A stretch of 64,000 nucleotides of DNA from Mycobacteriales bacterium. GTDB lineage: Bacteria; Actinomycetota; Actinomycetes; JAFAQI01; DASSKL01. Below the pieces are notes generated by a model. That model did not search any database, was not told the origin of the DNA, and saw only the letters and a program-made list of their open reading frames with translations. The stretch spans positions 856 through 64,855 of the forward strand of contig DASSKL010000010.1 in assembly GCA_035690485.1 (NCBI GenBank). The letters run 5' to 3'. Below, piece after piece: positions 29,575-40,196 of the stretch. Position 1 is the stretch's first letter, and every line of letters starts with the position of its first letter. Made by a program: the position numbers and the translations under genes.

Positions 29575-29952
29575 CTAGCCGACCACCATCAGCACGTTGC
29601 TCTCGTGGTCGCGAAGCCAGAACATCGGGGGCACCGGACCGCCCATGCGCTGCACCTCGGCGTCGACGTCGACGCCGGCCCCGCGCAGCTGTGCGTGGTA
29701 GCCGTCGACGTCCTCGGTGTGCAGGCTGATGCCGGTCTCCCGGCCGCCGGTCTTGGCCTCCGGGTGCGGGGGCGCGAGCGCGATGGTCGTCTCCTGACCG
29801 GGCAGCCCGACCTCGATCCAGCGGTCGGGGCCGGGGCCGAACGGGATGTCCACCCGCTTCTCGAAACCGAGCTTGCCGACGTAGAAGTCCACCGCGGCGT
29901 CCTGGTCGGCCATCGGGACGATCACCGTCGCGATCTTGCTGGCTTGTGCCAT
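29575..29952 (-). CDS. VOC/glyoxalase family protein
   Basis: Start at MAQASKIATVIVPMADQDAAVDFYVGKLGFEK (internal Met); 125 aa. The upstream part of the listed ORF merely translates the att/tRNA-like repeat. Confidence 0.7.
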   Translation of the reverse strand: MAQASKIATVIVPMADQDAAVDFYVGKLGFEKRVDIPFGPGPDRWIEVGLPGQETTIALAPPHPEAKTGGRETGISLHTEDVDGYHAQLRGAGVDVDAEVQRMGGPVPPMFWLRDHESNVLMVVG

Positions 29953-30090
29953 GGCTCCTCCTGCTCGTCGAAGCTGTCCGCAAGTAGACGACGAAGCGCG
30001 GCAGAAGTCATCGGGCTCGGGGTACGCCGGCAGAAGACTTACCTCTGCGCCACCCTGGACCTGGCACGGCCCGGCTCGGGTCAGAACCGA

Positions 30091-30123
30091 CGTGCGGGTG
30101 GTGGAGCTGAGGGGATTTGAACC
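30091..30123. repeat. att direct repeat (distal copy): 33-bp perfect duplicate of the tRNA-Ala 3' end plus 8 nt of 3' flank
   Basis: cgtgcgggtggtggagctgaggggatttgaacc is identical to 40112-40144. No D-arm or anticodon arm lies upstream, so this is a partial tRNA copy and not a gene. Confidence 0.85.
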
Positions 30124-30142
30124 ACTCGTCGCTCGCTTCCTA

Positions 30143-30168
30143 CCTGCGACTATACGCAAAGTCGCAGG
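30143..30168. other. 9-bp inverted repeat hairpin just inside the left att site
   Basis: cctgcgact-atacgcaa-agtcgcagg; could be an Int/Xis arm-type site or a terminator for the convergent cargo gene. Confidence 0.3.
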
Positions 30169-30307
30169 TCAGCGCGGTGGTCGTGAGCAGCCGGCGGTCG
30201 TTCGACGCCGTTGTACGCCGTGCCGTTATGCCCCGGGGCATAACGGATGATCTTGTTGCGGGGCGGCGAGACGTCCGATCGTCCGTGCGTTGATCAAGAG
30301 AACGGCA

Positions 30308-30883
30308 TCATTCAGAACCCGGCGCGTCGGGGGTCAAACCGAGCCGGTGCCCGGAGCCGCGCAGCCAGTCAATGACCCGCGCCCGAGCAACCCCGTGTCC
30401 GGCCGGCAGCAGCGCGGCGCGGTCCAACAGCGTGCCGAGATCGGCCAGGCGGGCCTCGAGAAGCGCATAGGCAAACGCGAAGTCCTTCTCCCGGTGTGCC
30501 GCGAGCTTCGCGACAATCAGGTCGTGTCGCTCCAGGCACAGCGCCGTCGCCGGCTCGGCCGCTCTGGCGTCGAACCGCACCAGTCGCTCCCGCCAGCCGA
30601 CGGGCAAGATCGCCGTGCTCACGTCGACGCCCTGGGCGTAGTAGGCGAACGTCTGGTGAAACGACGAGAGCTCGCCGATGGCGCCGTCGACGAGGTTGGC
30701 CTTCGCGGAGTCGTCGTCGTCGAAGAAGGCAAGATCCGCTTCGACCGACAGCCACGCGATCTCTGGCAGATCGTCCTCGCCGAAGGTGCCGAGGATCGCC
30801 TGTGAGCCGAGGACGAGGATGTCGGGGTCTCCGGCGACGCGAGCTGCCGCGCGGAGCACGTGCGCCAGCTCCTCGCGTCTCAC
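30308..30883 (-). CDS. Nucleotidyltransferase-fold protein, AbiEii-like putative toxin
   Basis: GTG start at 30883 with a GTGA overlap to the upstream HTH gene; hG[GS] motif (ILVLGSQAILG) followed by an acidic [DE]h[DE]h site (LSVEADLAFF) as in pol-beta-superfamily NTases; 192 aa. Confidence 0.5.
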   Translation of the reverse strand: MRREELAHVLRAAARVAGDPDILVLGSQAILGTFGEDDLPEIAWLSVEADLAFFDDDDSAKANLVDGAIGELSSFHQTFAYYAQGVDVSTAILPVGWRERLVRFDARAAEPATALCLERHDLIVAKLAAHREKDFAFAYALLEARLADLGTLLDRAALLPAGHGVARARVIDWLRGSGHRLGLTPDAPGSE

Positions 30884-31404
30884 CGCACCTTCGGCGAGTT
30901 CGCCGCCCCCAGCACCCGACGCCGTTCCTCCTCGGACAGCACCCCGGCGAAGGGGTTGTTCTGCCGCAGCTCGCGGGATCTGGGCGACGGTGAGGTCAAT
31001 GCGGTCAGCAGCTCGGTCAGCGGGCCTTCCAGCAGCCGCTCCCACTCCCGCATCCAGATTCGCGCGGCCCCACGCGAGGAGGACTCCCGCATCCGGCGCA
31101 GGTTCTCGCGAGCCAGCGCCCGTGCGCTGTCCGGATCTTCCGCTATCCGGCCGGCGATCGCATGCGCCAGCAGCAACGACCGCACCTGATCGCGAGTCAT
31201 CCGGCGTGCACCTGCGGCAACCACGTCGACGTCGCGCTGACGGACCCGACGGTGCTTACCCACCCATGAACACGGCAGGACGCCTTGGTCGCACAGGTCA
31301 ACGACGTGCTGGCGGGACACGCCCAACCGCGCCGCGGCCTCGCCAGTGCTCAACAACTCCTCGCCAGTGTCGGCGGCCAGGCGTTCGGCAACGGTCCCTC
31401 TCAC
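30880..31404 (-). CDS. HTH_17 (MerR/excisionase-type) DNA-binding protein with a C-terminal helical domain; AbiEi-like putative antitoxin/regulator
   Basis: GTG start at 31404; LSTGEAAARLGVSRQHVVDLCDQGVLPCSWVGKHRRVRQRDV helix-turn-helix; 4-nt overlap with the downstream NTase gene; C-terminal domain contains RSLLLAH (Rx5H). Confidence 0.5.
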   Translation of the reverse strand: MRGTVAERLAADTGEELLSTGEAAARLGVSRQHVVDLCDQGVLPCSWVGKHRRVRQRDVDVVAAGARRMTRDQVRSLLLAHAIAGRIAEDPDSARALARENLRRMRESSSRGAARIWMREWERLLEGPLTELLTALTSPSPRSRELRQNNPFAGVLSEEERRRVLGAANSPKVR

Positions 31405-31532
31405 GGCAACTACGCTAATGCCTAACCACCAAAAACACAATGATGGAGCGGCGATATTGGGTTTTGATCGGGTCGCAGGCACCATGCACGGGCGTCTGTC
31501 GAAGCCTGCGGCAGTAGCGGACGCGCACAAGG

Positions 31533-31991
31533 TCAGGACAGATCCAGATCCTGCTTCATCGCGGCCAGCTCATCCGCCGCCGAGAGGCGCAGCAGATCGT
31601 CCTCACGCTTGTGCCGCAGGAGGCTGTCCACGAGGACGCGCCGATGAGTCCCCACCATCCGATAGCCGATCTTGCCGTCGTTCAGCAAACCGATGAGGTA
31701 GGGGCGGGAGACGTTGAGCAGGTCGGCGGCCTGCTGGGTGGTCAGCTCGGCCGTCGATGGGACGACGGCGACCCCGTGACCGGCAGCCATGTGCGCGAGG
31801 ATCCGCACGAACACCCTGAGCGCTGCCGCGGGCACGAGCACCGTCTCCCCGTCGTCCTCCTCCACCCTCAGGTGGATCGACTCGGGCAGCCGCCGGTGTC
31901 GGGTGAGGTAGGACTGCAGCGCCGGTAGGGCCTCGGCAGCACGCGTGGCGTCGTCCTTGCTCGGCAAGATCGTGTCGAGCGCTGCGGTCAT
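31533..31991 (-). CDS. Hypothetical protein with a C-terminal HTH_17 DNA-binding domain (element regulator candidate)
   Basis: 152 aa; C-terminal LTTQQAADLLNVSRPYLIGLLNDGKIGYRMVGTHRRVLVDSL; the N-terminal roughly 80 aa has no recognisable family. Confidence 0.5.
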   Translation of the reverse strand: MTAALDTILPSKDDATRAAEALPALQSYLTRHRRLPESIHLRVEEDDGETVLVPAAALRVFVRILAHMAAGHGVAVVPSTAELTTQQAADLLNVSRPYLIGLLNDGKIGYRMVGTHRRVLVDSLLRHKREDDLLRLSAADELAAMKQDLDLS

Positions 31992-32440
31992 GACTCACCT
32001 CCTCCGCAGTCGCAGTATCCGCAACAAACGAAACAGACGCAATGACGCGTCCGCCGCGATCTTCAGGGGCCATCGGCACCCAAGCAGCCCCCGCGGCCAC
32101 CGTGCTCGAGGCCGCCAACCCGAACGGGAGTGGGTCCGGCGCTTCCCCCCGGGAGGCGAGACACCGGCCCCGTATCGGAGATACCGGGGTGTGTTCCGTC
32201 TGGTTTGTGTCCTGGGTCAGGTTCGTTGGGTCACATGTTCTTGGTGATCTCGTTCGCGTTCGGGATCTTGTTGTCGTGGGTGTTGGTGTCGTGTGAGCCC
32301 GTGATCGCATTCTGGAGATTGTGGTCACTGGCGACTCCTGTGCCGAGATTGGCTCCCTGCACTCCTTCCGCGTCGATTCCGCCAGGCGGAACACCAGCCC
32401 CACTCGGCTCGCTCGAGCTTCGATCAGTCCGCGGCCCGCG

Positions 32441-32488
32441 CGGGGACGCAGGCGGGGACGTCAGCGGGGACGCGGGCGGGGACGCGTG
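32441..32488. repeat. Four tandem 12-bp iteron-like repeats (CGGGGACGNNNG) upstream of the relaxase gene
   Basis: cggggacg recurs at 32441, 32453, 32465 and 32477 (exact 12-nt period); two more copies at 32695 and 32707; sits in an 850-bp non-coding region. Confidence 0.65.
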
Positions 32489-32498
32489 TCGGGTTGCC

Positions 32499-32606
32499 GG
32501 ACAAGGTGTTGGCCAAGGATCTGGACAAGGTCGTCACGCCTGACGAGCAGAATCCGGGGCGCTTTCGGCTTGCGGCCAAGGGTTCGGATAAGGATCTGGA
32601 CAAGGT
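32499..32606. repeat. Direct repeats AAGGATCTGGACAAGGT (x2) / GGACAAGGT (x3) inside the candidate oriT/regulatory region
   Basis: aaggatctggacaaggt at 32515-32531 and 32590-32606; ggacaaggt also at 32499-32507. Confidence 0.6.
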
Positions 32607-32694
32607 ACGGGCGCCAGAGTCCTCGCCGTGCAGACGGACCGGTGGCCTGATTTCAAGATCCCCCCACGCTCGAAACCGGCCCCGGGGGCGCCGG

Positions 32695-32718
32695 CGGGGA
32701 CGTCGGCGGGGACGCCCC
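32695..32718. repeat. Second cluster of two 12-bp CGGGGACGNNNG iterons about 130 bp before the relaxase start
   Basis: cggggacgtcgg cggggacgcccc at 32695-32718. Confidence 0.6.
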
Positions 32719-32845
32719 GAGCTTGCAATGCGCGCATGGATCTCGACCCCGGTGCGCCCACCCGCCGTCCCCGCCCGCCTGCCGCCCCCTCCCCGTCGAC
32801 CCGGGCTACCGCTGCGAGGGGTGGGCGGCGGTGATCTCGGTCGAG

Positions 32846-35701
32846 ATGCTGACCGGCGGACCCGGCGCGGGGGACTACTACCTGCGCCGGCAGGCGGACT
32901 GCGCGGCTGACTACTACGTCGGTCGGGGCGAGTCGGAGGGCGTGTGGGTAGGTGCCGGCGCCGAAGCGCTCGGCCTGACGGGTCCGCTGGGTCCAGGCGG
33001 CGAGCATGTGCTGCGAGCGATGCTCGCCGGCCGCGCTCCGGACGGCCAGGTGTTGGTGGCGGCGGTGCTTCGGGCGGTTCCGGCGTCCCGGCTGCCCGCC
33101 GGCCCACTCGTGGAGGCGGTCAGGGCGGTCGCGATCGGCCAGCAACTGACCCCGTCCGAAATCCTGCCGCGGACGCCGGATGCGCGGTACCGGGTGCTGG
33201 AACGGCGGATGGACGGGCCGCGTGGCGCGACGGCGACCGTGGGCGCGGAGGACGCCGAGCGGCTGTGTTCGGCGGCCGGCCTCGACCCGGTCGCGGTGTT
33301 CCGGGCGGCGGACGGCACGGACCGGTTCAGCCCGGCGCTCGCGGCGGCCGACGGCCGAGTGGACATTCGCCGCGCTGGGATCGACGTGACCATGTCCGCG
33401 CCCAAGTCGGTTTCCGTCCTCTACGGGCTCGGCTCGCCGGCGGTCGCCGGGCAGGCGCGGGCCGCCCACGACGCCGCGGTCGCCGAGGCACTGCGCTACC
33501 TGTCGCGGGAGGCGGGGCACGGGCTGCGCGGGCATCAAGGTGATGGGCGGCGGGCGGCGCGCATCGGCACCGACGGGCTGATCGCGGCGGGGTTCACCCA
33601 CCGGACGAGCCGCGCGGACGACCCGCAGTTGCACACCCACCTGGTCATCCCGAACGTCGTACGGGGTGAGGACGGCCAGTGGAGCGCGGTGGACTCCCGG
33701 GCGGTCTACCGGCACGCCACCACGGCCTCCTACCTGTACCAAGCAACGTTGCGGGCCGAGCTGACCCGCCGGCTCGGCGTCACGTGGACCGCCCCCAAGC
33801 GGGGCATCGCCGAGATCGTGGGGGTGCCGGCTGGGCTGCGCCGGCTCTTCTCGACCCGCAGCGTCCAGATCAGCACCGAACTGGCCCGAACCGGCCGGGA
33901 CGGCCCCGCTGCGGCGCAGGTCGCCTGCCTGGCCACCCGCCCCGCCAAGTCCCACACGCCGGAGGTCGCGCTACGGGAGCGCTGGCAGCTGCGCGCCGCC
34001 GAGGCTGGTCATCCGGGCGAGCAGCTGATCGACCAGACGGTCGGCCGGCAGATCGAGTTGCCGGCGTTGCCGACGTTCGCCGAGATGAGCGACAGGCTGG
34101 TCGCCCCGACCGGGCTGACCTCGATGCAGACCAGCGTGGACCGCCGCGATCTGCTGCAGGCCGTCTGCGAAGAACTGCCGCCCGGCGCACCGGTCTCCCT
34201 CGAGCTGGTCGACGCCTACGCCGACGCCACCCTCCGCTCCACGGAGTTGGTGCGGCTGGCAGGCGCCGCCGCGGTGGTTGAGGATGGGCCGCGCTGGTCC
34301 ACAGCTGAACTGCTGGCCACCGAAAAGCACGCCTTCACCGTCGCCGCCACGCTCCGTGCCGCCGCCCCCGCCCGCCCGATCCGCTCTATCGCTTTGCGCG
34401 GCCTCAATGGCGAACAGGCGGCGCTGGTCCGCGGATTGCTCGAGCATACAGGCGGACTGACGATCGTCGTCGGCCCGGCGGGCGCCGGTAAGACCGCCGC
34501 GCTGAAGACCGCCGTCGAGGCATGGTCCGCGGCCGGCGTACCCGTGCACGGCGCGACGGTCGCCGCGCTCACCGCCCGCGAACTATCCCGGGCCACCGGC
34601 ATGCCCACAACTACGTTGACCCGCCTGCTTGCTGACGCCGACCGGCCTACCGCCGACGGTCACCCTCCGGCAGGCCTGCCGGCCGGGTCGGTGCTGGTCG
34701 TCGACGAGGCCGGCATGGTCGACACCCGCACCCTCGTCCGGCTTCTCGACCACGCCGCGGCCAGCCGAGCGAAACTCGTGCTGGTCGGGGATCCGGCCCA
34801 GCTGCCGGAGATCGGCGCCGGCGGGCTGTTCACCGCGCTCACCCGCCATCCCGACACCATCCGGCTGCAGGGCAACCAGCGGCAGCACCGACTGTGGGAA
34901 CGGGTCGCGCTCGCCCAGCTGCGCACCGGTGACATTGCCGGGGCCCTGGATGCCTACGAGGCGCACGGGCGTATCCACACGGCCCCGACCGCGGTCGACG
35001 CGCAGGTCGAGATCGTCAGCGACTACCTCGCCCTCCGGGACCAGACAGTCCATCCCGACCGGGTGCTCATGCTCACGTCCACCCGCGCCGACACGTGCGA
35101 GCTCAACGAGCTGACCCGCGCCCGGCTGCGCGCCCACGGCCGGCTCGCCGGCCCCGCACTCACCGTCATGACCGCTGACGGGGACGTACGTGACTTCCAG
35201 GCCGGCGACGAGGTGGTGGTCATCCGCAACGACCACAGCCGGGGGCTGCTCAATGGCACCCGGGCCACCGTCACCGCCGTCGACCCCCACGCCCAGTGGC
35301 TCGCCTTGACCACCCGCGACGGCGCCGGGCACACCGTCGGCACCGACTGGCTACAGGAGGATCGACTCGCCCACGGTTACGCGCTCACCGTCCATAAGGC
35401 CCAAGGCTCCACCGTCGACCACGCCCTGCTCTACGGCACCGGCGCCCTCAGCCAGGAAGCCGGCTACGTCGCCCTGTCCCGTGGCCGCGAGAGCAACCAC
35501 CTCTACGCCGCGAACCCCGACCTCGACGAGCTGTACGCCGTCGAGCGGCAAGTACCGGACTGGCTCGCCGACCGGCTCGAACAGTCAGCCCGGCAAACGC
35601 TCGCCCTCGAGCAGTACCCGGACGGCGGATCTCATCCGGACGGGCTGTTCGACTGGCTGCGAGATGACGGGCGCGGCCACGACCTCGGGATCGGCCGATG
35701 A
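32846..35701 (+). CDS. traA: MobF-family conjugative relaxase fused to a RecD-like helicase (TraA/TrwC-like)
   Basis: N-terminus MLTGGPGAGDYYLRRQ...DYYVGRGESEGVWVGAGAEALGLTG; ...TMSAPKSVSVLYG...; HTHLVIPNV three-His motif; C-terminal VVGPAGAGKTAAL Walker A, VVDEAGMV and YALTVHKAQGSTVDH helicase motifs. An alternative GTG start lies at 32831. Confidence 0.85.
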   Translation: MLTGGPGAGDYYLRRQADCAADYYVGRGESEGVWVGAGAEALGLTGPLGPGGEHVLRAMLAGRAPDGQVLVAAVLRAVPASRLPAGPLVEAVRAVAIGQQLTPSEILPRTPDARYRVLERRMDGPRGATATVGAEDAERLCSAAGLDPVAVFRAADGTDRFSPALAAADGRVDIRRAGIDVTMSAPKSVSVLYGLGSPAVAGQARAAHDAAVAEALRYLSREAGHGLRGHQGDGRRAARIGTDGLIAAGFTHRTSRADDPQLHTHLVIPNVVRGEDGQWSAVDSRAVYRHATTASYLYQATLRAELTRRLGVTWTAPKRGIAEIVGVPAGLRRLFSTRSVQISTELARTGRDGPAAAQVACLATRPAKSHTPEVALRERWQLRAAEAGHPGEQLIDQTVGRQIELPALPTFAEMSDRLVAPTGLTSMQTSVDRRDLLQAVCEELPPGAPVSLELVDAYADATLRSTELVRLAGAAAVVEDGPRWSTAELLATEKHAFTVAATLRAAAPARPIRSIALRGLNGEQAALVRGLLEHTGGLTIVVGPAGAGKTAALKTAVEAWSAAGVPVHGATVAALTARELSRATGMPTTTLTRLLADADRPTADGHPPAGLPAGSVLVVDEAGMVDTRTLVRLLDHAAASRAKLVLVGDPAQLPEIGAGGLFTALTRHPDTIRLQGNQRQHRLWERVALAQLRTGDIAGALDAYEAHGRIHTAPTAVDAQVEIVSDYLALRDQTVHPDRVLMLTSTRADTCELNELTRARLRAHGRLAGPALTVMTADGDVRDFQAGDEVVVIRNDHSRGLLNGTRATVTAVDPHAQWLALTTRDGAGHTVGTDWLQEDRLAHGYALTVHKAQGSTVDHALLYGTGALSQEAGYVALSRGRESNHLYAANPDLDELYAVERQVPDWLADRLEQSARQTLALEQYPDGGSHPDGLFDWLRDDGRGHDLGIGR

Positions 35702-35919
35702 GGCTGCTGACCATCCCCGAAGCGGCCACGGAGCTGCACGTCCCCGAAGGCTGGCTGCGCAAGAAGGTCACCGCTCGCGAAGTGCCCTTCACCCGCCTGG
35801 GCAAGCACGTCCGCTTCACCGACGACCAACTACGCGCCATCGTCATAGCCGGCGAGGTACTACCGATTGTCGTACCCGCCAGGCAAGGCCTCAGCCGGCG
35901 CGCCAGGAAGCTCGCATAA
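35698..35919 (+). CDS. xis: Excisionase/Xis-like HTH_17 DNA-binding protein
   Basis: 73 aa; LTIPEAATELHVPEGWLRKKVTAREVPFTRLGKHVRFTDDQL; ATGA overlap with the relaxase stop. Confidence 0.7.
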   Translation: MRLLTIPEAATELHVPEGWLRKKVTAREVPFTRLGKHVRFTDDQLRAIVIAGEVLPIVVPARQGLSRRARKLA

Positions 35920-35974
35920 CATGCTCGGCCAGTTTGCAGGACCCTGTCGGTTCCTTGAGGGTGCACTCGGAATT

Positions 35975-36008
35975 GGATCCGGACACCACTGTTGCGGTGT
36001 CCGGATCC
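35975..36008. terminator. Bidirectional hairpin terminator between convergent xis and the secreted-protein gene
   Basis: Perfect 13-bp inverted repeat ggatccggacacc-actgttgc-ggtgtccggatcc, 56 nt after the xis stop and 46 nt after the stop of the minus-strand gene. Confidence 0.45.
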
Positions 36009-36053
36009 AATGGCCGGATTGCTACGCCCTACCAGTTGGGTGAGTGTGCACTC

Positions 36054-36902
36054 TCAGATGCTGGCGCACGCATCGCCGCGGTCGTAGTACGGCGACGGCG
36101 TTTCCCACCAGGTCGCGTCCCACACGGTCGAGTAGTTGACTGGGCCGTAGACGACAACGACTTGTTGCCCGTACGTCACGTTCGTGTCAGACGAGTTCGC
36201 GCCTCCGGTTCCTGGGTGACAGGACGTTGCGCTGATTCCTTCGTTGGACACGGACACATGGCCCTGGTCGACCCAAGATCCCAAGTACGTGTAGGTGCCC
36301 TTGATGTAGTTGGATCCGCCGACCAAAGTCGTACCCACGCATATGGTGCCGCTGGACGTAGTGGCAGCACAGGCTGAGCCGACAGGAACAGACGCCGGGG
36401 AAACCTGTGTCGGCGACTGCGTCTCGGACGGGGATGGGCTAGCACTTGCTTGATCCGCAGACGGGCTAGCACTCTCTTGCGGCCCAGACGCGGAAGAGTT
36501 GGAATTCGCTTGCGCCCCCGAGGGCACTGGCACCGACTTCGGATCGCAACTGATCACACCGGCGACGGCCAAGGTCGTTATGTCCGCAGGCATGCCCTTG
36601 ATCCCGCTGGCGCCGCTAACGGGGATGTACTCGAGGTTCTCAAGGTGGCAACCGGAGGGAGCAAGCTCGTCCCATTTCGCGCTTCGCATGCTTGCTTGCT
36701 GGTCGGCTGCCCAGGCTTCCCACGCGCTTCTCGGCGCTGCTGCCGACGGCGCGGCCGGAAGTGGGTTTGCGTCCACGCTGGAAACAGGTTGCCCCGTTGG
36801 CGTCGGAGGCGAACCATCTGCAGCCGCGGGTGCAATGTCTGCGCCTCCCACGAAACCCAACGCGACGGCGAACGTGACTACGAACGACTTGCGACGAGCC
36901 AC
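36054..36902 (-). CDS. Secreted Cys-containing protein of unknown function (two domains joined by a Ser/Pro/Gln-rich linker)
   Basis: GTG start with AAGGGGG RBS; signal peptide VARRKSFVVTFAVALGFVGGADIAPAAA; low-complexity linker SGPQESASPSADQASASPSPSETQSP; C-terminal domain with about 5 Cys; lower-GC codon usage. Confidence 0.5.
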   Translation of the reverse strand: MARRKSFVVTFAVALGFVGGADIAPAAADGSPPTPTGQPVSSVDANPLPAAPSAAAPRSAWEAWAADQQASMRSAKWDELAPSGCHLENLEYIPVSGASGIKGMPADITTLAVAGVISCDPKSVPVPSGAQANSNSSASGPQESASPSADQASASPSPSETQSPTQVSPASVPVGSACAATTSSGTICVGTTLVGGSNYIKGTYTYLGSWVDQGHVSVSNEGISATSCHPGTGGANSSDTNVTYGQQVVVVYGPVNYSTVWDATWWETPSPYYDRGDACASI

Positions 36903-36943
36903 TGCAACCACCCCCTTCTTGTCAACAATTGGACTTAGGTGTC

Positions 36944-38062
36944 TCAACTCGATGGACGAGTCTCTGGCGCGTTCAGCGTGATCGGGCCTGGCAGCGCGGC
37001 AACGGCGATGCTGTCGTCGAGTCCCCATTCCAGTCGGGCACTTCCCTGGCCGGCGGGGACCTCGATTTGCATCGCGAATGTGGCGCTGTCCCCGGCCTTA
37101 ATGCCGTTTGTCTCGTCGCAGTTGAGGCGGTACTGGCCGACGGTGGCGTCAGTTGGCTGGTCGTAGCCGGCACCCATGTATTGGGTGTAGATCGGACAGC
37201 GGTTGAAGATCACGTCCCGATCGGACGGATTGTGGAGGGTAACCGTGTAAGTGACCGTGTCTCCGCTGGTAGCCGCGCGGGGAGCGCTGATCGTGATCAC
37301 CAAGCCGTTCAACTCCGAGGTGGCCGCCGCGGGCGTGGTGAACGCGCTGTACGTGAAGGCCGTATGCCGAAAACCGTTGCACGGAGTGTCGGTCGCAGCG
37401 GGGAAGGCGATTGTCACCTCGCCGCCCCCCGGGGCCGGCACCCGGAAGGCTGTCGCGGTGGCATTGGATTCGCCAGAAGGCATTGGGGGCAACGTGTCGC
37501 ACTCGTCTGAGTAGCTGAACACGATCGCCGCACGCTCCCCAGGCTTTAGGTTTGCCGGCGGGGCGGTGTGCACATGAGGGTCAGCCGTCACGGTCGTCCC
37601 GCTGACCCGACCACCGCCGGTCAGTTCCACGCTTATGTCAGAGGCATAGCCGGACAGCGTGCAGGGCTGGCTGCCACGATTGGTGAACCAGAGCAGAAGG
37701 CGATGATCGTGAACACCAAGGCCCGCGTCGACTGGTTCGGCGCGACCTTGCATTTCCGCGGCGCCGCAGGCTGGATACTCGGCCGAGTTGTCGACTTCTA
37801 CGGGCTGGTTGACCCATGGCGCCGGCTGCGCGCTTCCCATACGGATCGGGACCGGCTCAGTAGAGTGCCCGGCGAGGCTGTAGGTAGAGAGGACGGCGAC
37901 GACGGCGGTCGTCGTGGCCGTCGCCGTTAGAACCGCGACAGCGCGGCGAGAGCGGCGTCGGCGGTCGATACGCCGGTGCAGTTCTTCCAGAAATTCCCCC
38001 TGTACCGCAACGACGGGAACGTCTTCGAAGGCACGAACTAGCTCACGTTCTGCATCGTTCAT
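36944..38062 (-). CDS. Anti-sigma factor with extracytoplasmic DUF4232-like domain
   Basis: ATGA overlap with the sigma gene; N-terminal cytoplasmic segment MNDAERELVRAFEDVPVV..., a single TM (AVAVLTATATTTAVVAVLS), and an ectodomain with HRLLLWFTNRGSQPCTLSGY typical of DUF4232. Confidence 0.55.
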   Translation of the reverse strand: MNDAERELVRAFEDVPVVAVQGEFLEELHRRIDRRRRSRRAVAVLTATATTTAVVAVLSTYSLAGHSTEPVPIRMGSAQPAPWVNQPVEVDNSAEYPACGAAEMQGRAEPVDAGLGVHDHRLLLWFTNRGSQPCTLSGYASDISVELTGGGRVSGTTVTADPHVHTAPPANLKPGERAAIVFSYSDECDTLPPMPSGESNATATAFRVPAPGGGEVTIAFPAATDTPCNGFRHTAFTYSAFTTPAAATSELNGLVITISAPRAATSGDTVTYTVTLHNPSDRDVIFNRCPIYTQYMGAGYDQPTDATVGQYRLNCDETNGIKAGDSATFAMQIEVPAGQGSARLEWGLDDSIAVAALPGPITLNAPETRPSS

Positions 38063-38556
38063 TTCGGTTGCTCCGCTTCCCGCAATGGCGAGCCGAGCCG
38101 TTCTCTTAGCGTGCGCAAGGCCTTGGCCGACTGGCTCTTCACGGTGCCGACGCTGCATCCCAAGGCCGCTGCGGCCTGTTGTTCGGAGTAGTCAGCCACA
38201 TAACGCAGCGCCAACACCGCTCGCTGACGCGGAGGCAAAGCGGCGAGCGCGTCCCACACCTCGAAACTCCGGCCGACCGGCTCATAGAATTGCTCCGGAA
38301 CTACGGCGACCAGGCGTTCCAAGCGGCGACGTCGCCACCAACTGATCCTCTGGTTCACCATGACCTGACGGACGTACCTGGCCGGGTCCCCGCTTGCGAG
38401 CACACGAGACCACCGGGTCCCGACCTGCAACAGCGCTTCCTGCACCAAGTCGTCGGCATGCGCGGAGTTGGCGGTCAGCGCATATGCGAAGCGAGAGAGT
38501 TCCGGCATACGGACACGCACGAACGCGTCGAACGACGCTCGTTCGTCGGCGTCCAC
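38059..38556 (-). CDS. ECF (sigma-70 family group IV) RNA polymerase sigma factor
   Basis: 165 aa; region 2 (ADDLVQEALLQVGTRWSRV...YVRQVMVNQRISWWRR) and region 4 HTH (QRAVLALRYVADYSEQQAAAALGCSVGTVKSQSAKALRTLR). Confidence 0.8.
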   Translation of the reverse strand: MDADERASFDAFVRVRMPELSRFAYALTANSAHADDLVQEALLQVGTRWSRVLASGDPARYVRQVMVNQRISWWRRRRLERLVAVVPEQFYEPVGRSFEVWDALAALPPRQRAVLALRYVADYSEQQAAAALGCSVGTVKSQSAKALRTLRERLGSPLREAEQPK

Positions 38557-38760
38557 GCTTCACCACCTTCCGCCAGTAGCACGCACGAGGAGGTGGAAAG
38601 GTTGCCCGGGCCGACCAGCAGATTGGGCGACAGGGTTGCCGGACCAGGCAAACGTTCCTGAAAGCGACCTCCGTAGTCAGGTGTACGGCCCCCGACTCCG
38701 GGCCGAATCGCCATTGTCAGTCAGACCGGGCATGCTGCGCCCGAACGAGGAATGGCACCC

Positions 38761-40020
38761 CTATGCCGGCTTCTCCTCAAGCACGAGCACCGCCGCCTCG
38801 ACGCTGTCCCCTCCGGTTGCGGTGACCACCTTGCGACCGCCGAGTGCCCGGTCGATGGCGAGGTCGGCTATCTCGTGGGTCTGGAAGAGCAGCCCACCGT
38901 AGACGTCGACGGTGATCTGGATGCTCTTGTGGCCGAGCCGCTTCTGGATCACCGGCAGGGGGACGCCAGCCGAGATCAGCCAGGCGGCGTGCGTGTGCCG
39001 CAGGTCGTGGAACCGCGGCGTCTTCGCCAGTCCTTTGGCCTGCGCGGCCTTGATCGCGCGCTGCCATCCGCCGTACCAGTTGCCGTGCACCCGCCGGCCG
39101 CCGCCGCGGGCGCTGAACACCAGATCGTCCGGGCCTCGACCGGCCACGACGCGGCGCAACGCCTCGACGACGCGCGGGGCCAGGGTGATGCGCCGCCGGG
39201 ACTCGCGCGTCTTCGGCTTGCCGATGTAGGCGACGCCGTGCTGCCCGAGCGCGAACTCGCCCCGGCCGTTGCTCTTCCAAGCCCGGCGGATCGTCAGCAT
39301 CGCCGGTGAGCCGTCGATGTTGAGGTCCTTGACCTTGAGCGCGGTGAGCTCGCCCCAGCGCAGCCCCGTGCCCACGGCGACAGTCAGGAAGTCGCGGTCA
39401 ACCTCGGGCATGCACGAGCGCAGGAGCGCGAACTCCTTCTCGGTGAGGAAGACCTTGTCCTCGTCGTCCTCAGTGTCGTCGTCGGTCGGCGGCAGTTTCA
39501 CCCCTTCGCAGGGGTTGCGGCCGATCAGGCCCTTCTCCACCGCGCTCTTGAGCACGGCCGCCAGCAGGCCGTGGTAGTTGGCGATCGTCTTCGGGCTGGC
39601 GCCGGCCTTGCGCCGGGCGACGATCCAGTCGCGGTCGTCGTCCGACGTCAGGTTCTCGATCGTCGGCTGGCACCGCTTGATCTCGGTGAGCCAGCCGTCG
39701 AGCGACGTCAGCTGCTGGACGTACTTCGTCTGCGTGTCCGGCCCGGCGCTGGTGAGCCGGCGGACGTACGCCGTGCCGAACTCGAGTAACGGGCGCTCCT
39801 CCGCCGGCTCCTCCCACGCCTCACCGAAACCCATGCCCTTGACCCAGCCGTCCGGCCACCGCTGACCGGCGGCGTCGACGAGCGCCGCGAACTTCAGCGC
39901 CGCCCGGCGGTCGGCGAACGTCTCGGACTGCCATGGTGCGCCGCGGCTGCCACCGAGCAGCCACTGCACCTTGTAGGTGCGCTCGCCGGACTTGTGCTTG
40001 CGCGTGACGACGCTCGCCAT
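38761..40020 (-). CDS. int: Tyrosine-type site-specific recombinase / phage integrase
   Basis: ATG 40020 with GGAGG 6 nt upstream; N-terminal MASVVTRKHKSGERTYKVQW AP2-like domain; catalytic region with R...HDLRHTHAAWLISAGVPLPVIQKRLGHKSIQITVDVYGGLL (R, HxxR, Y). Lies directly 3' of tRNA-Ala. Confidence 0.9.
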   Translation of the reverse strand: MASVVTRKHKSGERTYKVQWLLGGSRGAPWQSETFADRRAALKFAALVDAAGQRWPDGWVKGMGFGEAWEEPAEERPLLEFGTAYVRRLTSAGPDTQTKYVQQLTSLDGWLTEIKRCQPTIENLTSDDDRDWIVARRKAGASPKTIANYHGLLAAVLKSAVEKGLIGRNPCEGVKLPPTDDDTEDDEDKVFLTEKEFALLRSCMPEVDRDFLTVAVGTGLRWGELTALKVKDLNIDGSPAMLTIRRAWKSNGRGEFALGQHGVAYIGKPKTRESRRRITLAPRVVEALRRVVAGRGPDDLVFSARGGGRRVHGNWYGGWQRAIKAAQAKGLAKTPRFHDLRHTHAAWLISAGVPLPVIQKRLGHKSIQITVDVYGGLLFQTHEIADLAIDRALGGRKVVTATGGDSVEAAVLVLEEKPA

Positions 40021-40111
40021 GACCGCCTCCAAGATCAACCGTTATGCCTCGGTTATGCCTCGGGAGCGACCGTAGAGCGGCCCTGCGACAGTTTTCGCAG
40101 GTCAGAGCCTT

Positions 40112-40144
40112 CGTGCGGGTGGTGGAGCTGAGGGGATTTGAACC
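40112..40144. repeat. att direct repeat (tRNA-proximal copy) overlapping the 3' 25 nt of tRNA-Ala
   Basis: Identical 33-mer to 30091-30123. Confidence 0.85.
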
Positions 40145-40196
40145 CCTGACCCCCTCGATGCGAACGAGGTGCGCTACCGGACTGCGCCACAGCCCC
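40120..40196 (-). tRNA. tRNA-Ala (anticodon CGC)
   Basis: 77-nt cloverleaf GGGGCUGUGGCGCAGUCCGGUAGCGCACCUCGUUCGCAUCGAGGGGGUCAGGGGUUCAAAUCCCCUCAGCUCCACCA; G3:U70 Ala identity pair; anticodon loop UUCGCAU; encoded CCA. Confidence 0.9.

Follow-up and report, generated by a model that had tools for sequence, protein, structure and literature searches.

A conserved pair of genes for a two-domain helix-turn-helix protein and a DUF6036 nucleotidyltransferase, a candidate toxin–antitoxin module, on a small integrative element of a Mycobacteriales bacterium

We analyzed a 64,000-nucleotide (nt) stretch of DNA from a Mycobacteriales bacterium (assembly GCA_035690485.1, contig DASSKL010000010.1, positions 856 to 64,855; hereafter, the window), in which a small integrative element carries three genes, here called A, B, and C, at positions 30308–31991. 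Genes B and C probably (with a rough probability of 0.6) constitute a self-contained, horizontally mobile two-gene module resembling a toxin–antitoxin (TA) system, in which C, a nucleotidyltransferase (NTase) of the DUF6036 family, would be the toxin, and B, a protein with a DNA-binding helix-turn-helix (HTH) head and a helical C-terminal domain, would be the antitoxin. The copy in the window is an ordinary member of a widespread family. The sequence-only reading of this region had proposed a TA-like module consisting of a DNA-binding protein and a pol-beta-type NTase, and the survey of co-occurrence across genomes supports a conserved, translationally coupled pair of this kind.

Anatomy of the B–C gene pair

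The minus strand of the region consists of three co-oriented open reading frames (ORFs). Gene C (30308..30883) encodes a pol-beta-type NTase of 191 amino acids (aa), one residue fewer than the 192 first counted, and gene B (30880..31404) encodes a 174-aa two-domain partner that is predicted to act as an antitoxin and autorepressor. The 3′ end of B reads ...AAG GTG CGG TGA and the 5′ end of C reads GTG AGA CGC GAG..., so that the stop codon of B (30880–30882) and the GTG start codon of C (30881–30883) share the sequence GTGA, a 4-nt overlap (30880..30883) of the kind that couples translation. The peptides previously quoted from these proteins (ILVLGSQAILG, LSVEADLAFF, and RSLLLAH) were all present, as were the overlap and the shared orientation. 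Gene B was taken to start with the GTG at 31404; the ORF can be extended to a TTG at 31530, which would give a protein of 216 aa, but the start column of the B homologues in the alignment is that of the 174-aa form, in agreement with the length first assigned. A spacer of 128 nt (31405..31532), which is relatively AT-rich, separates B from gene A and is the putative promoter/operator of the pair. An Rfam scan of 29900–32800 returned only sub-threshold noise and a tRNA-like fragment of an attachment (att) site.

Conserved pairing across genomes and plasmids

With one genome taken per species, at least 565 loci encoding a relative of C were obtained, and the counts of pairing and of A-like genes given here rest on the best 80 of these loci. 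In 79 of the 80 loci, a B-family ORF directly preceded C on its strand, and the lone exception was cut by a contig end. The 4-nt overlap recurred in 71 of 79 related loci, as GTGA in 43, ATGA in 27, and TTGA in one. Because the same pair and the same overlap recur in so many independent genomes, this layout is not attributable to chance. When metagenome contigs were searched in the reverse direction, with only the C-terminal domain of B (hereafter, the Bc domain) as the query, a C homologue was found directly downstream in 72 of the 77 loci with sufficient room. The distance matrices of B and C also co-varied (Mantel r = 0.66, compared with a maximum of 0.15 in 999 permutations). Among the 134 neighboring genes, which were assigned to 140 Pfam families, no family occurred more than six times; the pair has neither a further conserved partner nor a pathway in which it is embedded.

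Actinomycetota and Chloroflexota account for the at least 565 species genomes with the pair; Gemmatimonadota and Myxococcota assemblies contain it as well, and more distant members are carried by Pseudomonadota plasmids. Distant DUF6036 genes (32–47% identity) were located on 54 plasmids, of which 28 were conjugative and 10 mobilizable. In each of four annotated examples from plasmids, the Bc domain was encoded by the preceding gene, which overlapped the start of the NTase gene by 4 or 8 nt. The heads of these proteins differed: in the plasmids of Curtobacterium and Mycobacterium lentiflavum, Bc was fused to an XRE-type HTH, whereas in those of Rhodococcus (116 aa) and Alicycliphilus (109 aa), Bc stood alone without any DNA-binding head. 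A metagenome search for stand-alone Bc returned 80 best loci, nearly all of which bore an HTH or were cut by contig ends. Since the distant plasmid members retain Bc but change the head, sequence comparison identifies the Bc domain and the DUF6036 NTase as the invariant core of the module and the head as its swappable part, and HTH_17, which had been regarded as a defining part, is not one. Antitoxins and their toxins usually have this architecture, in which the binding domain and the adjacent enzyme stay constant and the DNA-binding head is exchanged.

On the plasmids and in a Myxococcaceae genome, the neighbors of the B–C relatives included AbiEi/AbiEii, Phd/RelE, and Fic genes. Searches of IMG/VR and of the GenBank phages returned no relatives. 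Several loci of the survey (designated here by L numbers) had unusual arrangements. True AbiEi/AbiEii-type pairs adjoined Bc–DUF6036 pairs or were situated within 2 kb of them in three loci (L181, 1076–3013; L092, 8233–9920; and L180, 4273–5528), the first of which is the Alicycliphilus plasmid pALIDE01, with two NTase pairs in tandem. A single fused B–C ORF, in which Bc is joined to the NTase by a linker, was present in one actinobacterial metagenome-assembled genome (L064:3421–4549); this fusion could be natural or could be a frameshift error of the assembly, which was probably built from long reads, and it was not counted as evidence. In a Chloroflexia genome, a second, inverted copy of the module (L023:1984–2619, minus strand) lay beside an intact one, with B at full length and C as a short fragment.

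Gene C encodes a DUF6036-family nucleotidyltransferase

The C protein of the window matched the Pfam profile of DUF6036 (PF19502) with 21.4 bits (E = 2.5e-4), slightly below the gathering score of 23.6, and its membership of the family is established through its homologues: all 46 aligned C homologues matched the profile (best E-value, 8.4e-11), and nearly all the close homologues carried the precomputed label PF19502 or the NCBI name "DUF6036 family nucleotidyltransferase". This family, the only one in Pfam matched by C, is described there as a "nucleotidyltransferase of unknown function". None of the 46 homologues matched any other NTase family of Pfam, including AbiEii, even at E ≤ 10; C had no match among the resistance-NTase families of Pfam and NCBIfam, and searches of the PDB by sequence and by profile returned nothing.

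In the alignment of the 46 sequences, the invariant residues of the C family were G26-S27, S46, E48-x-D50, G70-E71, H76, D121, K126, R131, and K133-D134, and F137 was also invariant, giving K133-D134-x-x-F137. The AlphaFold (AF2) model of C (pLDDT, 96.7) had an alpha/beta NTase core in its N-terminal part, followed by a bundle of four C-terminal helices. L25-G26-S27 formed the turn after the strand at residues 21–24, and E48-A-D50 lay on the strand at residues 48–53. The protein thus has the signature of the pol-beta NTase superfamily, an hG[GS] turn and, on the strand after it, [DE]h[DE]h, and the predicted placement of the G-S turn and the E-x-D strand is the canonical one. The spacing between the two motifs is 20 residues, compared with the canonical 9–13, and both motifs were invariant in the 46 sequences and in plasmid members only 35% identical. 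Foldseek comparisons with the PDB and BFVD yielded no significant match for the model; the best size-matched PDB neighbor was the toxin MenT1 (8an4), with a nonsignificant TM-score of 0.42 (E = 0.29). The plasmid members at 35% identity retained the full set of polar, active-site-like residues. Because distant partners keep only W121, R147, P151, and hydrophobic positions of the Bc domain, it is C, not B, that looks like the enzyme of the pair.

Gene B joins an HTH_17 head to a helical domain absent from Pfam

The N-terminal head of B (residues 17–60; 31225..31356, minus strand) is a winged HTH of the MerR/excisionase type. It matched HTH_17 (PF12728; 3.1e-11, 43.8 bits) and TIGR01764 (1e-09), in both cases above the cut-offs, and it superposed in Foldseek on BldC, RacA, and the Xis of Pukovnik, with target TM-scores of approximately 0.8. 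This accords with the original assignment of the head to this type rather than to the AbiEi winged helix. The remainder of the protein, the Bc domain (residues 68–174; 30883..31203, minus strand), is all-helical, with the consensus TRDQxRSL...W..EW..LL.GP...ELRQNxPFAG, and is the putative NTase-binding and neutralizing domain. It belongs to no Pfam family and had no match in the PDB, including HEPN structures, according to Pfam and Foldseek searches. PADLOC assigned both A and B only to a generic HTH model (mad1).

We found 1027 B homologues with the same length and architecture, and Bc alone retrieved 1223 cluster representatives at E ≤ 1e-3. When 10 Bc representatives were scanned with Pfam, nine had no match and one matched DUF2442, at its N-terminus and outside the Bc region. 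Bc was thus found together with HTH_17, with an XRE-type HTH, with DUF2442 (P0381), or with no head at all, and wherever the context was checked, a DUF6036 gene adjoined the Bc gene, regardless of the head. T137-S138 of B was nearly invariant. The histidine of RSLLLAH (H81), which the sequence-only reading had pointed out as an Rx5H motif, was H, C, or Y among the homologues; with this variation and with no HEPN match by Pfam or Foldseek, the interpretation of the motif as a HEPN site was rejected.

Asymmetric decay of the two genes

The Bc domain was present in all 76 loci selected, from curated genomes, for an intact C. In two B genes that appeared to be truncated, most of the HTH head was missing or had been replaced, but the Bc domain, or most of it, was kept. 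Among the 65 loci that were selected for B from metagenome contigs and had room downstream, C was intact in 40, truncated in 14, split in six, and absent in five, so that it was damaged or missing in 25 (38%). Intact and deleted variants of C coexisted within clusters with 95% nucleotide identity; for example, two contigs (L141 and L137) differed by a clean 301-bp deletion within C and were otherwise 99.8% identical. One contig (L087) retained only approximately 33 nt of C. C was lost while B was kept, and the reverse was never seen, which fits the identification of C as a toxin and of B as an antitoxin and repressor: such a pattern would arise if cells tolerate B without C but suffer from C without B.

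Comparison with known nucleotidyltransferase systems

The closest parallel in layout is the type IV system AbiE, which is bicistronic with a 4-nt overlap and whose DUF1814 toxins have a specific motif IV, +DxxD (PMC3985639). Like AbiE, the B–C pair is bicistronic, with the gene of a two-domain DNA-binding protein preceding that of a pol-beta NTase and overlapping it by 4 nt; both systems are widespread on chromosomes and mobile elements, and both NTases combine a G[GS]...[DE]x[DE] core with a K/R-D motif in the C-terminal helices. In contrast, the NTase of the pair belongs to DUF6036, not DUF1814, and has approximately 190 aa, compared with 243 and 299 aa in two annotated AbiEii proteins encoded beside B–C pairs. 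In C, the motif spacing is x20, E-x-D replaces D-x-D, and KDxxF replaces +DxxD, to which it bears only a partial resemblance. The head of B is HTH_17 (or XRE, or absent), whereas AbiEi has a winged HTH, and the second domain is unrelated, all-helical, and not in Pfam. The original description of the locus as AbiE-like therefore stands for gene order and overlap and fails for family membership, since neither protein is an AbiEi or AbiEii; its remarks that the NTase is short and distinct from DUF1814 agree with the length and family of C.

The MenAT1 pair of M. tuberculosis (Rv0078B/Rv0078A) resembles B–C in other respects. MenT1 is a small NTase (the chains of 8an4 have 189–195 residues) with a bi-lobed plan, consisting of a beta-sheet lobe and a four-helix bundle (PMC10435456, PMC11375011), which the model of C may share, and MenT toxins modify the 3′ ends of tRNAs (PMC10435456). 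In MenA1/MenT1 and MenA3/MenT3, the antitoxin induces auto-modification of the motif-I serine, and a Ser/Thr phospho-acceptor is conserved at this position (PMC11375011); the counterpart in C, S27, is invariant and could likewise accept a phosphate. MenT1 nevertheless has no detectable sequence relationship to C, and the structural match was not significant. B, with 174 aa and an HTH, is unlike MenA1, a peptide of 7.4 kDa that lacks a DNA-binding domain, and tRNA modification has been demonstrated for MenT1 but is only predicted for C. From these comparisons, B–C appears to work like an AbiE or MenAT module, yet it lies outside those families.

The idea that B–C is a divergent but true member of AbiE (AbiEi/AbiEii, COG5340–DUF1814) is barely tenable. 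The shared layout (PMC3985639), the pol-beta motifs I and II together with the KDxxF of C, and sub-threshold AbiEi_4 matches over the HTH of 29 of 42 B homologues (best 2.4e-4) speak for it, but B itself reached only 19.7 bits with AbiEi_4 (cut-off 25), over the HTH, and is not a COG5340 antitoxin. None of the 46 C homologues matched PF08843 at E ≤ 10, and when the C profile was aligned with two AbiEii sequences in hhalign, the probability was at most 2%; C was accordingly rejected as an AbiEii/DUF1814 member. Furthermore, the all-helical C-terminal domain of B matched no AbiEi domain, and genuine AbiEi/AbiEii pairs adjoin B–C pairs as separate systems. The polarity of the pair could also be reversed, as in the type VII system HepT–MntA, which likewise combines a small pol-beta NTase with a helical partner in two genes. 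In HEPN/MNT systems, the minimal NTase acts as an antitoxin, and by analogy, C would NMPylate a toxic C-terminal domain of B, for which the Rx5H motif and the nearly invariant T137-S138 offer possible modification sites. We regard this as improbable: the partner of MntA is a HEPN RNase with a conserved Rx4–6H, whereas the Rx5H of B varies at the histidine, its C-terminal domain matches neither HEPN nor any other PDB fold, and the three residues kept by distant members do not form a catalytic-looking set. Were B toxic, the frequent deletion of C beside an intact B would kill the cell or face strong counter-selection, and so gene loss points to C as the harmful partner. B is also the upstream gene with a DNA-binding head, the usual position of the antitoxin.

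It is rather unlikely, but deserves more weight, that C is a nontoxic NTase acting on a small molecule (e.g., an antibiotic, as in Lnu/ANT) or a protein, with B as its regulator or specificity subunit, and that the pair causes neither addiction nor growth arrest. The two-lobed NTase plan and the size of C are compatible with this, as approximately 190 aa also fits small resistance NTases, and the flanks are mostly ordinary chromosomal genes, including major facilitator superfamily (MFS) transporters (six occurrences) and rifampin ADP-ribosyltransferases (two). B is highly conserved, and the loss of C in 38% of the B-selected loci would also fit a dispensable accessory enzyme. However, C lacks a match to any resistance-NTase family, and an intact C is never without Bc. 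The persistence of Bc without a DNA-binding head indicates that the conserved role of B is protein–protein contact, not transcription; a regulator and an enzyme would not usually show such strict 4-nt coupling or be paired one to one in different phyla and on plasmids, and bona fide TA pairs repeatedly adjoin B–C. The sequence-only reading had suggested that gene A, in which it correctly recognized an HTH_17 domain, could belong to the module, and a three-gene system with A as an additional regulator or second antitoxin would fit the position of A, 128 nt upstream on the same strand with an HTH_17 like that of B, an arrangement kept on identical and near-identical soil metagenome contigs. Such a system is very improbable, and A was rejected as a member: none of the 80 B–C loci of other genomes had an A-like gene, the family of A (more than 7,700 matches) normally precedes a PIN_3/VapC50_C gene, even among relatives 78–84% identical to A, and sister elements hold an A–PIN pair at this slot without B–C.

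Several observations weigh against a TA-like module with C as the toxin. The immediate neighbors of B–C are mostly ordinary chromosomal genes, with no enrichment of mobile or defense functions, and neither NCBIfam nor PADLOC matched C. No sigma-70 consensus promoter and no operator-like inverted repeat was detected in the 128-nt spacer upstream of B. B is conserved nearly as strongly as C (mean distance, 0.51 vs. 0.46), whereas many antitoxins evolve faster than their cognate toxins. The size of the decay asymmetry is approximate, as the C-selected loci came from curated genomes and the B-selected loci from metagenome contigs, and some of the "split" C genes may be assembly errors. Lastly, our literature search found no toxicity or neutralization experiment for any DUF6036 protein.

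Proposed mechanism and significance

The mechanism that we infer from sequence comparison, in its toxicity, neutralization, autoregulation, and target, would run as follows. C would bind NTP–Mg2+ through G26-S27, E48-x-D50, and the helix carrying K126, R131, and K133-D134, and would transfer a nucleotide to an essential target, halting growth; by analogy with MenT and AbiEii, the lead candidates for this target are tRNA 3′ ends. The Bc domain of B would bind and neutralize C, possibly via the strongly conserved ELRQNxPFAG loop, either by sequestration or, as in MenA/MenT, by causing the motif-I serine to be auto-modified. The HTH_17 head would act on a promoter within the 128-nt spacer and so repress its own operon, and the 4-nt stop/start overlap would couple translation such that no C is made without B. 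As the cargo of an integrative mobilizable element, the module would most plausibly serve in the stabilization or retention of the element or in abortive defense.

The NTase toxins AbiEii and MenT represent a recently understood class that blocks translation by modifying tRNA ends, and such toxins matter for phage defense and mycobacterial physiology. DUF6036 is already catalogued but uncharacterized, and its partner Bc has no Pfam family; in the literature searched, we found no mention of DUF6036 or PF19502 and no description of the B–C pair, in keeping with the earlier suggestion of an undescribed variant. There is a slightly better than even chance that Bc and DUF6036 together form a large, undescribed TA (or abortive-defense) family, with a new lineage of NTase toxins and a new antitoxin fold with a freely exchanged head; the target and mode of neutralization of these toxins could differ from those of MenT and AbiEii. 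Should the DUF6036 pair prove to be another lineage that follows the same operon logic without being related in sequence, the class of NTase toxins would extend beyond DUF1814, and Bc would be a new antitoxin domain to study. A function that can be tested would then be available for the often annotated "DUF6036 family nucleotidyltransferase" and its "helix-turn-helix" neighbor in thousands of genomes, mycobacterial plasmids among them.

Gene A is an orphan VapB50-like antitoxin

Gene A (31533..31991, minus strand) encodes a 152-aa protein with an HTH_17 domain at residues 83–129 and a full-length match to the VapB50-like antitoxin family. Although it is a neighbor of the B–C pair, its relatives have a different partner: in five of the six loci examined (L083, L086, L087, L088, and L090), a gene for a PIN_3/VapC50_C toxin directly followed the A homologue, with 1 nt between the stop codon and the toxin gene or with an overlap, and this holds even for relatives 84% and 78% identical to A. 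The window does not have this VapBC50-type order of antitoxin and PIN_3 toxin. A tblastn search of the window detected no PIN coding sequence; its lone match was noncoding sequence of the element end, which in L087 is fused onto a truncated PIN gene, and a PIN_3 remnant in the window was therefore rejected. Because the PIN toxin gene is absent from the window and the B–C pair occupies its place, A is, judging from its sequence relationships, an orphan antitoxin left over from a different system. Sister elements, in contrast, hold the complete VapBC50-type pair in the same slot, beside the same palindrome and att end. An A-family gene likewise occurs without a PIN partner in Kibdelosporangium aridum (L081/L082), so that orphan copies recur.

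The mobile element and its cargo slot

The genes were originally described as cargo of an element, and its structure agrees with this. Direct repeats of 48 nt, 92% identical and duplicating the 3′ end of a tRNA-Ala(CGC) gene, bracket an element of approximately 10 kb (30079–40196) that contains an integrase, a TrwC relaxase, and genes A, B, and C. The distal att repeat (30079..30126) forms the boundary next to C, and the integration site (40100..40196, minus strand) comprises the tRNA-Ala(CGC) gene (40120–40196) and the proximal att repeat (40100–40147). The tyrosine integrase gene (38761..40038, minus strand; Phage_integrase, 4.4e-24) lies beside the tRNA gene, and a gene for a TrwC-type relaxase/helicase (TrwC, 2e-73; AAA_30, 2.7e-51) occupies 32831..35701 on the plus strand, with its start taken from a 956-aa gene call on identical metagenome contigs. 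With tRNA-duplicating repeats, an integrase, and a relaxase, the element has the hallmarks of an integrative mobilizable element. It also encodes an ECF sigma factor (38059–38556), a DUF4232 protein (36944–38158), and a possible secreted protein (36054–37028), and identical copies of it occur in several JGI soil metagenome contigs.

Between C and the att repeat lies a perfect 24-bp palindrome, CCGTTATGCCCCGGGGCATAACGG (30223..30246), which was 92–100% conserved in sister elements, whether their cargo was A–PIN or A–B–C. Its role may be that of a terminator hairpin or of a site for recombination; the surrounding 111 nt showed no unusual fold (z = −1.3). Four sister elements (L083, L084, L088, and L090) carried A–PIN followed by the same palindrome and att end as the window. 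The soil metagenome contig L087 (1–1515), inserted at the same chromosomal site next to a glyoxalase gene, carried B, the C remnant of approximately 33 nt with indels, A, a truncated PIN_3 gene, the palindrome, and the att repeat, in that order; both predicted toxin genes are destroyed there, and both HTH_17 partners are kept. These layouts indicate that the element end is a slot of TA-cassette exchange and toxin-gene loss, and the locus thus illustrates how such cassettes are exchanged, and toxins lost, at one site of a small integrative element.

A further HTH_17 gene, encoding 73 aa (35698–35919, plus strand), overlaps the stop codon of the relaxase gene by 4 nt and is probably the excisionase (Xis) of the element, so that one 10-kb element would encode three proteins of the HTH_17 type, each with a role of its own. 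Just upstream of the relaxase gene, at 32441–32497 and 32683–32715, tandem 12-nt repeats (CGGGGACGCxxG, a family of four copies) and overlapping GC-rich palindromes were present, and these may constitute an oriT or iteron region.

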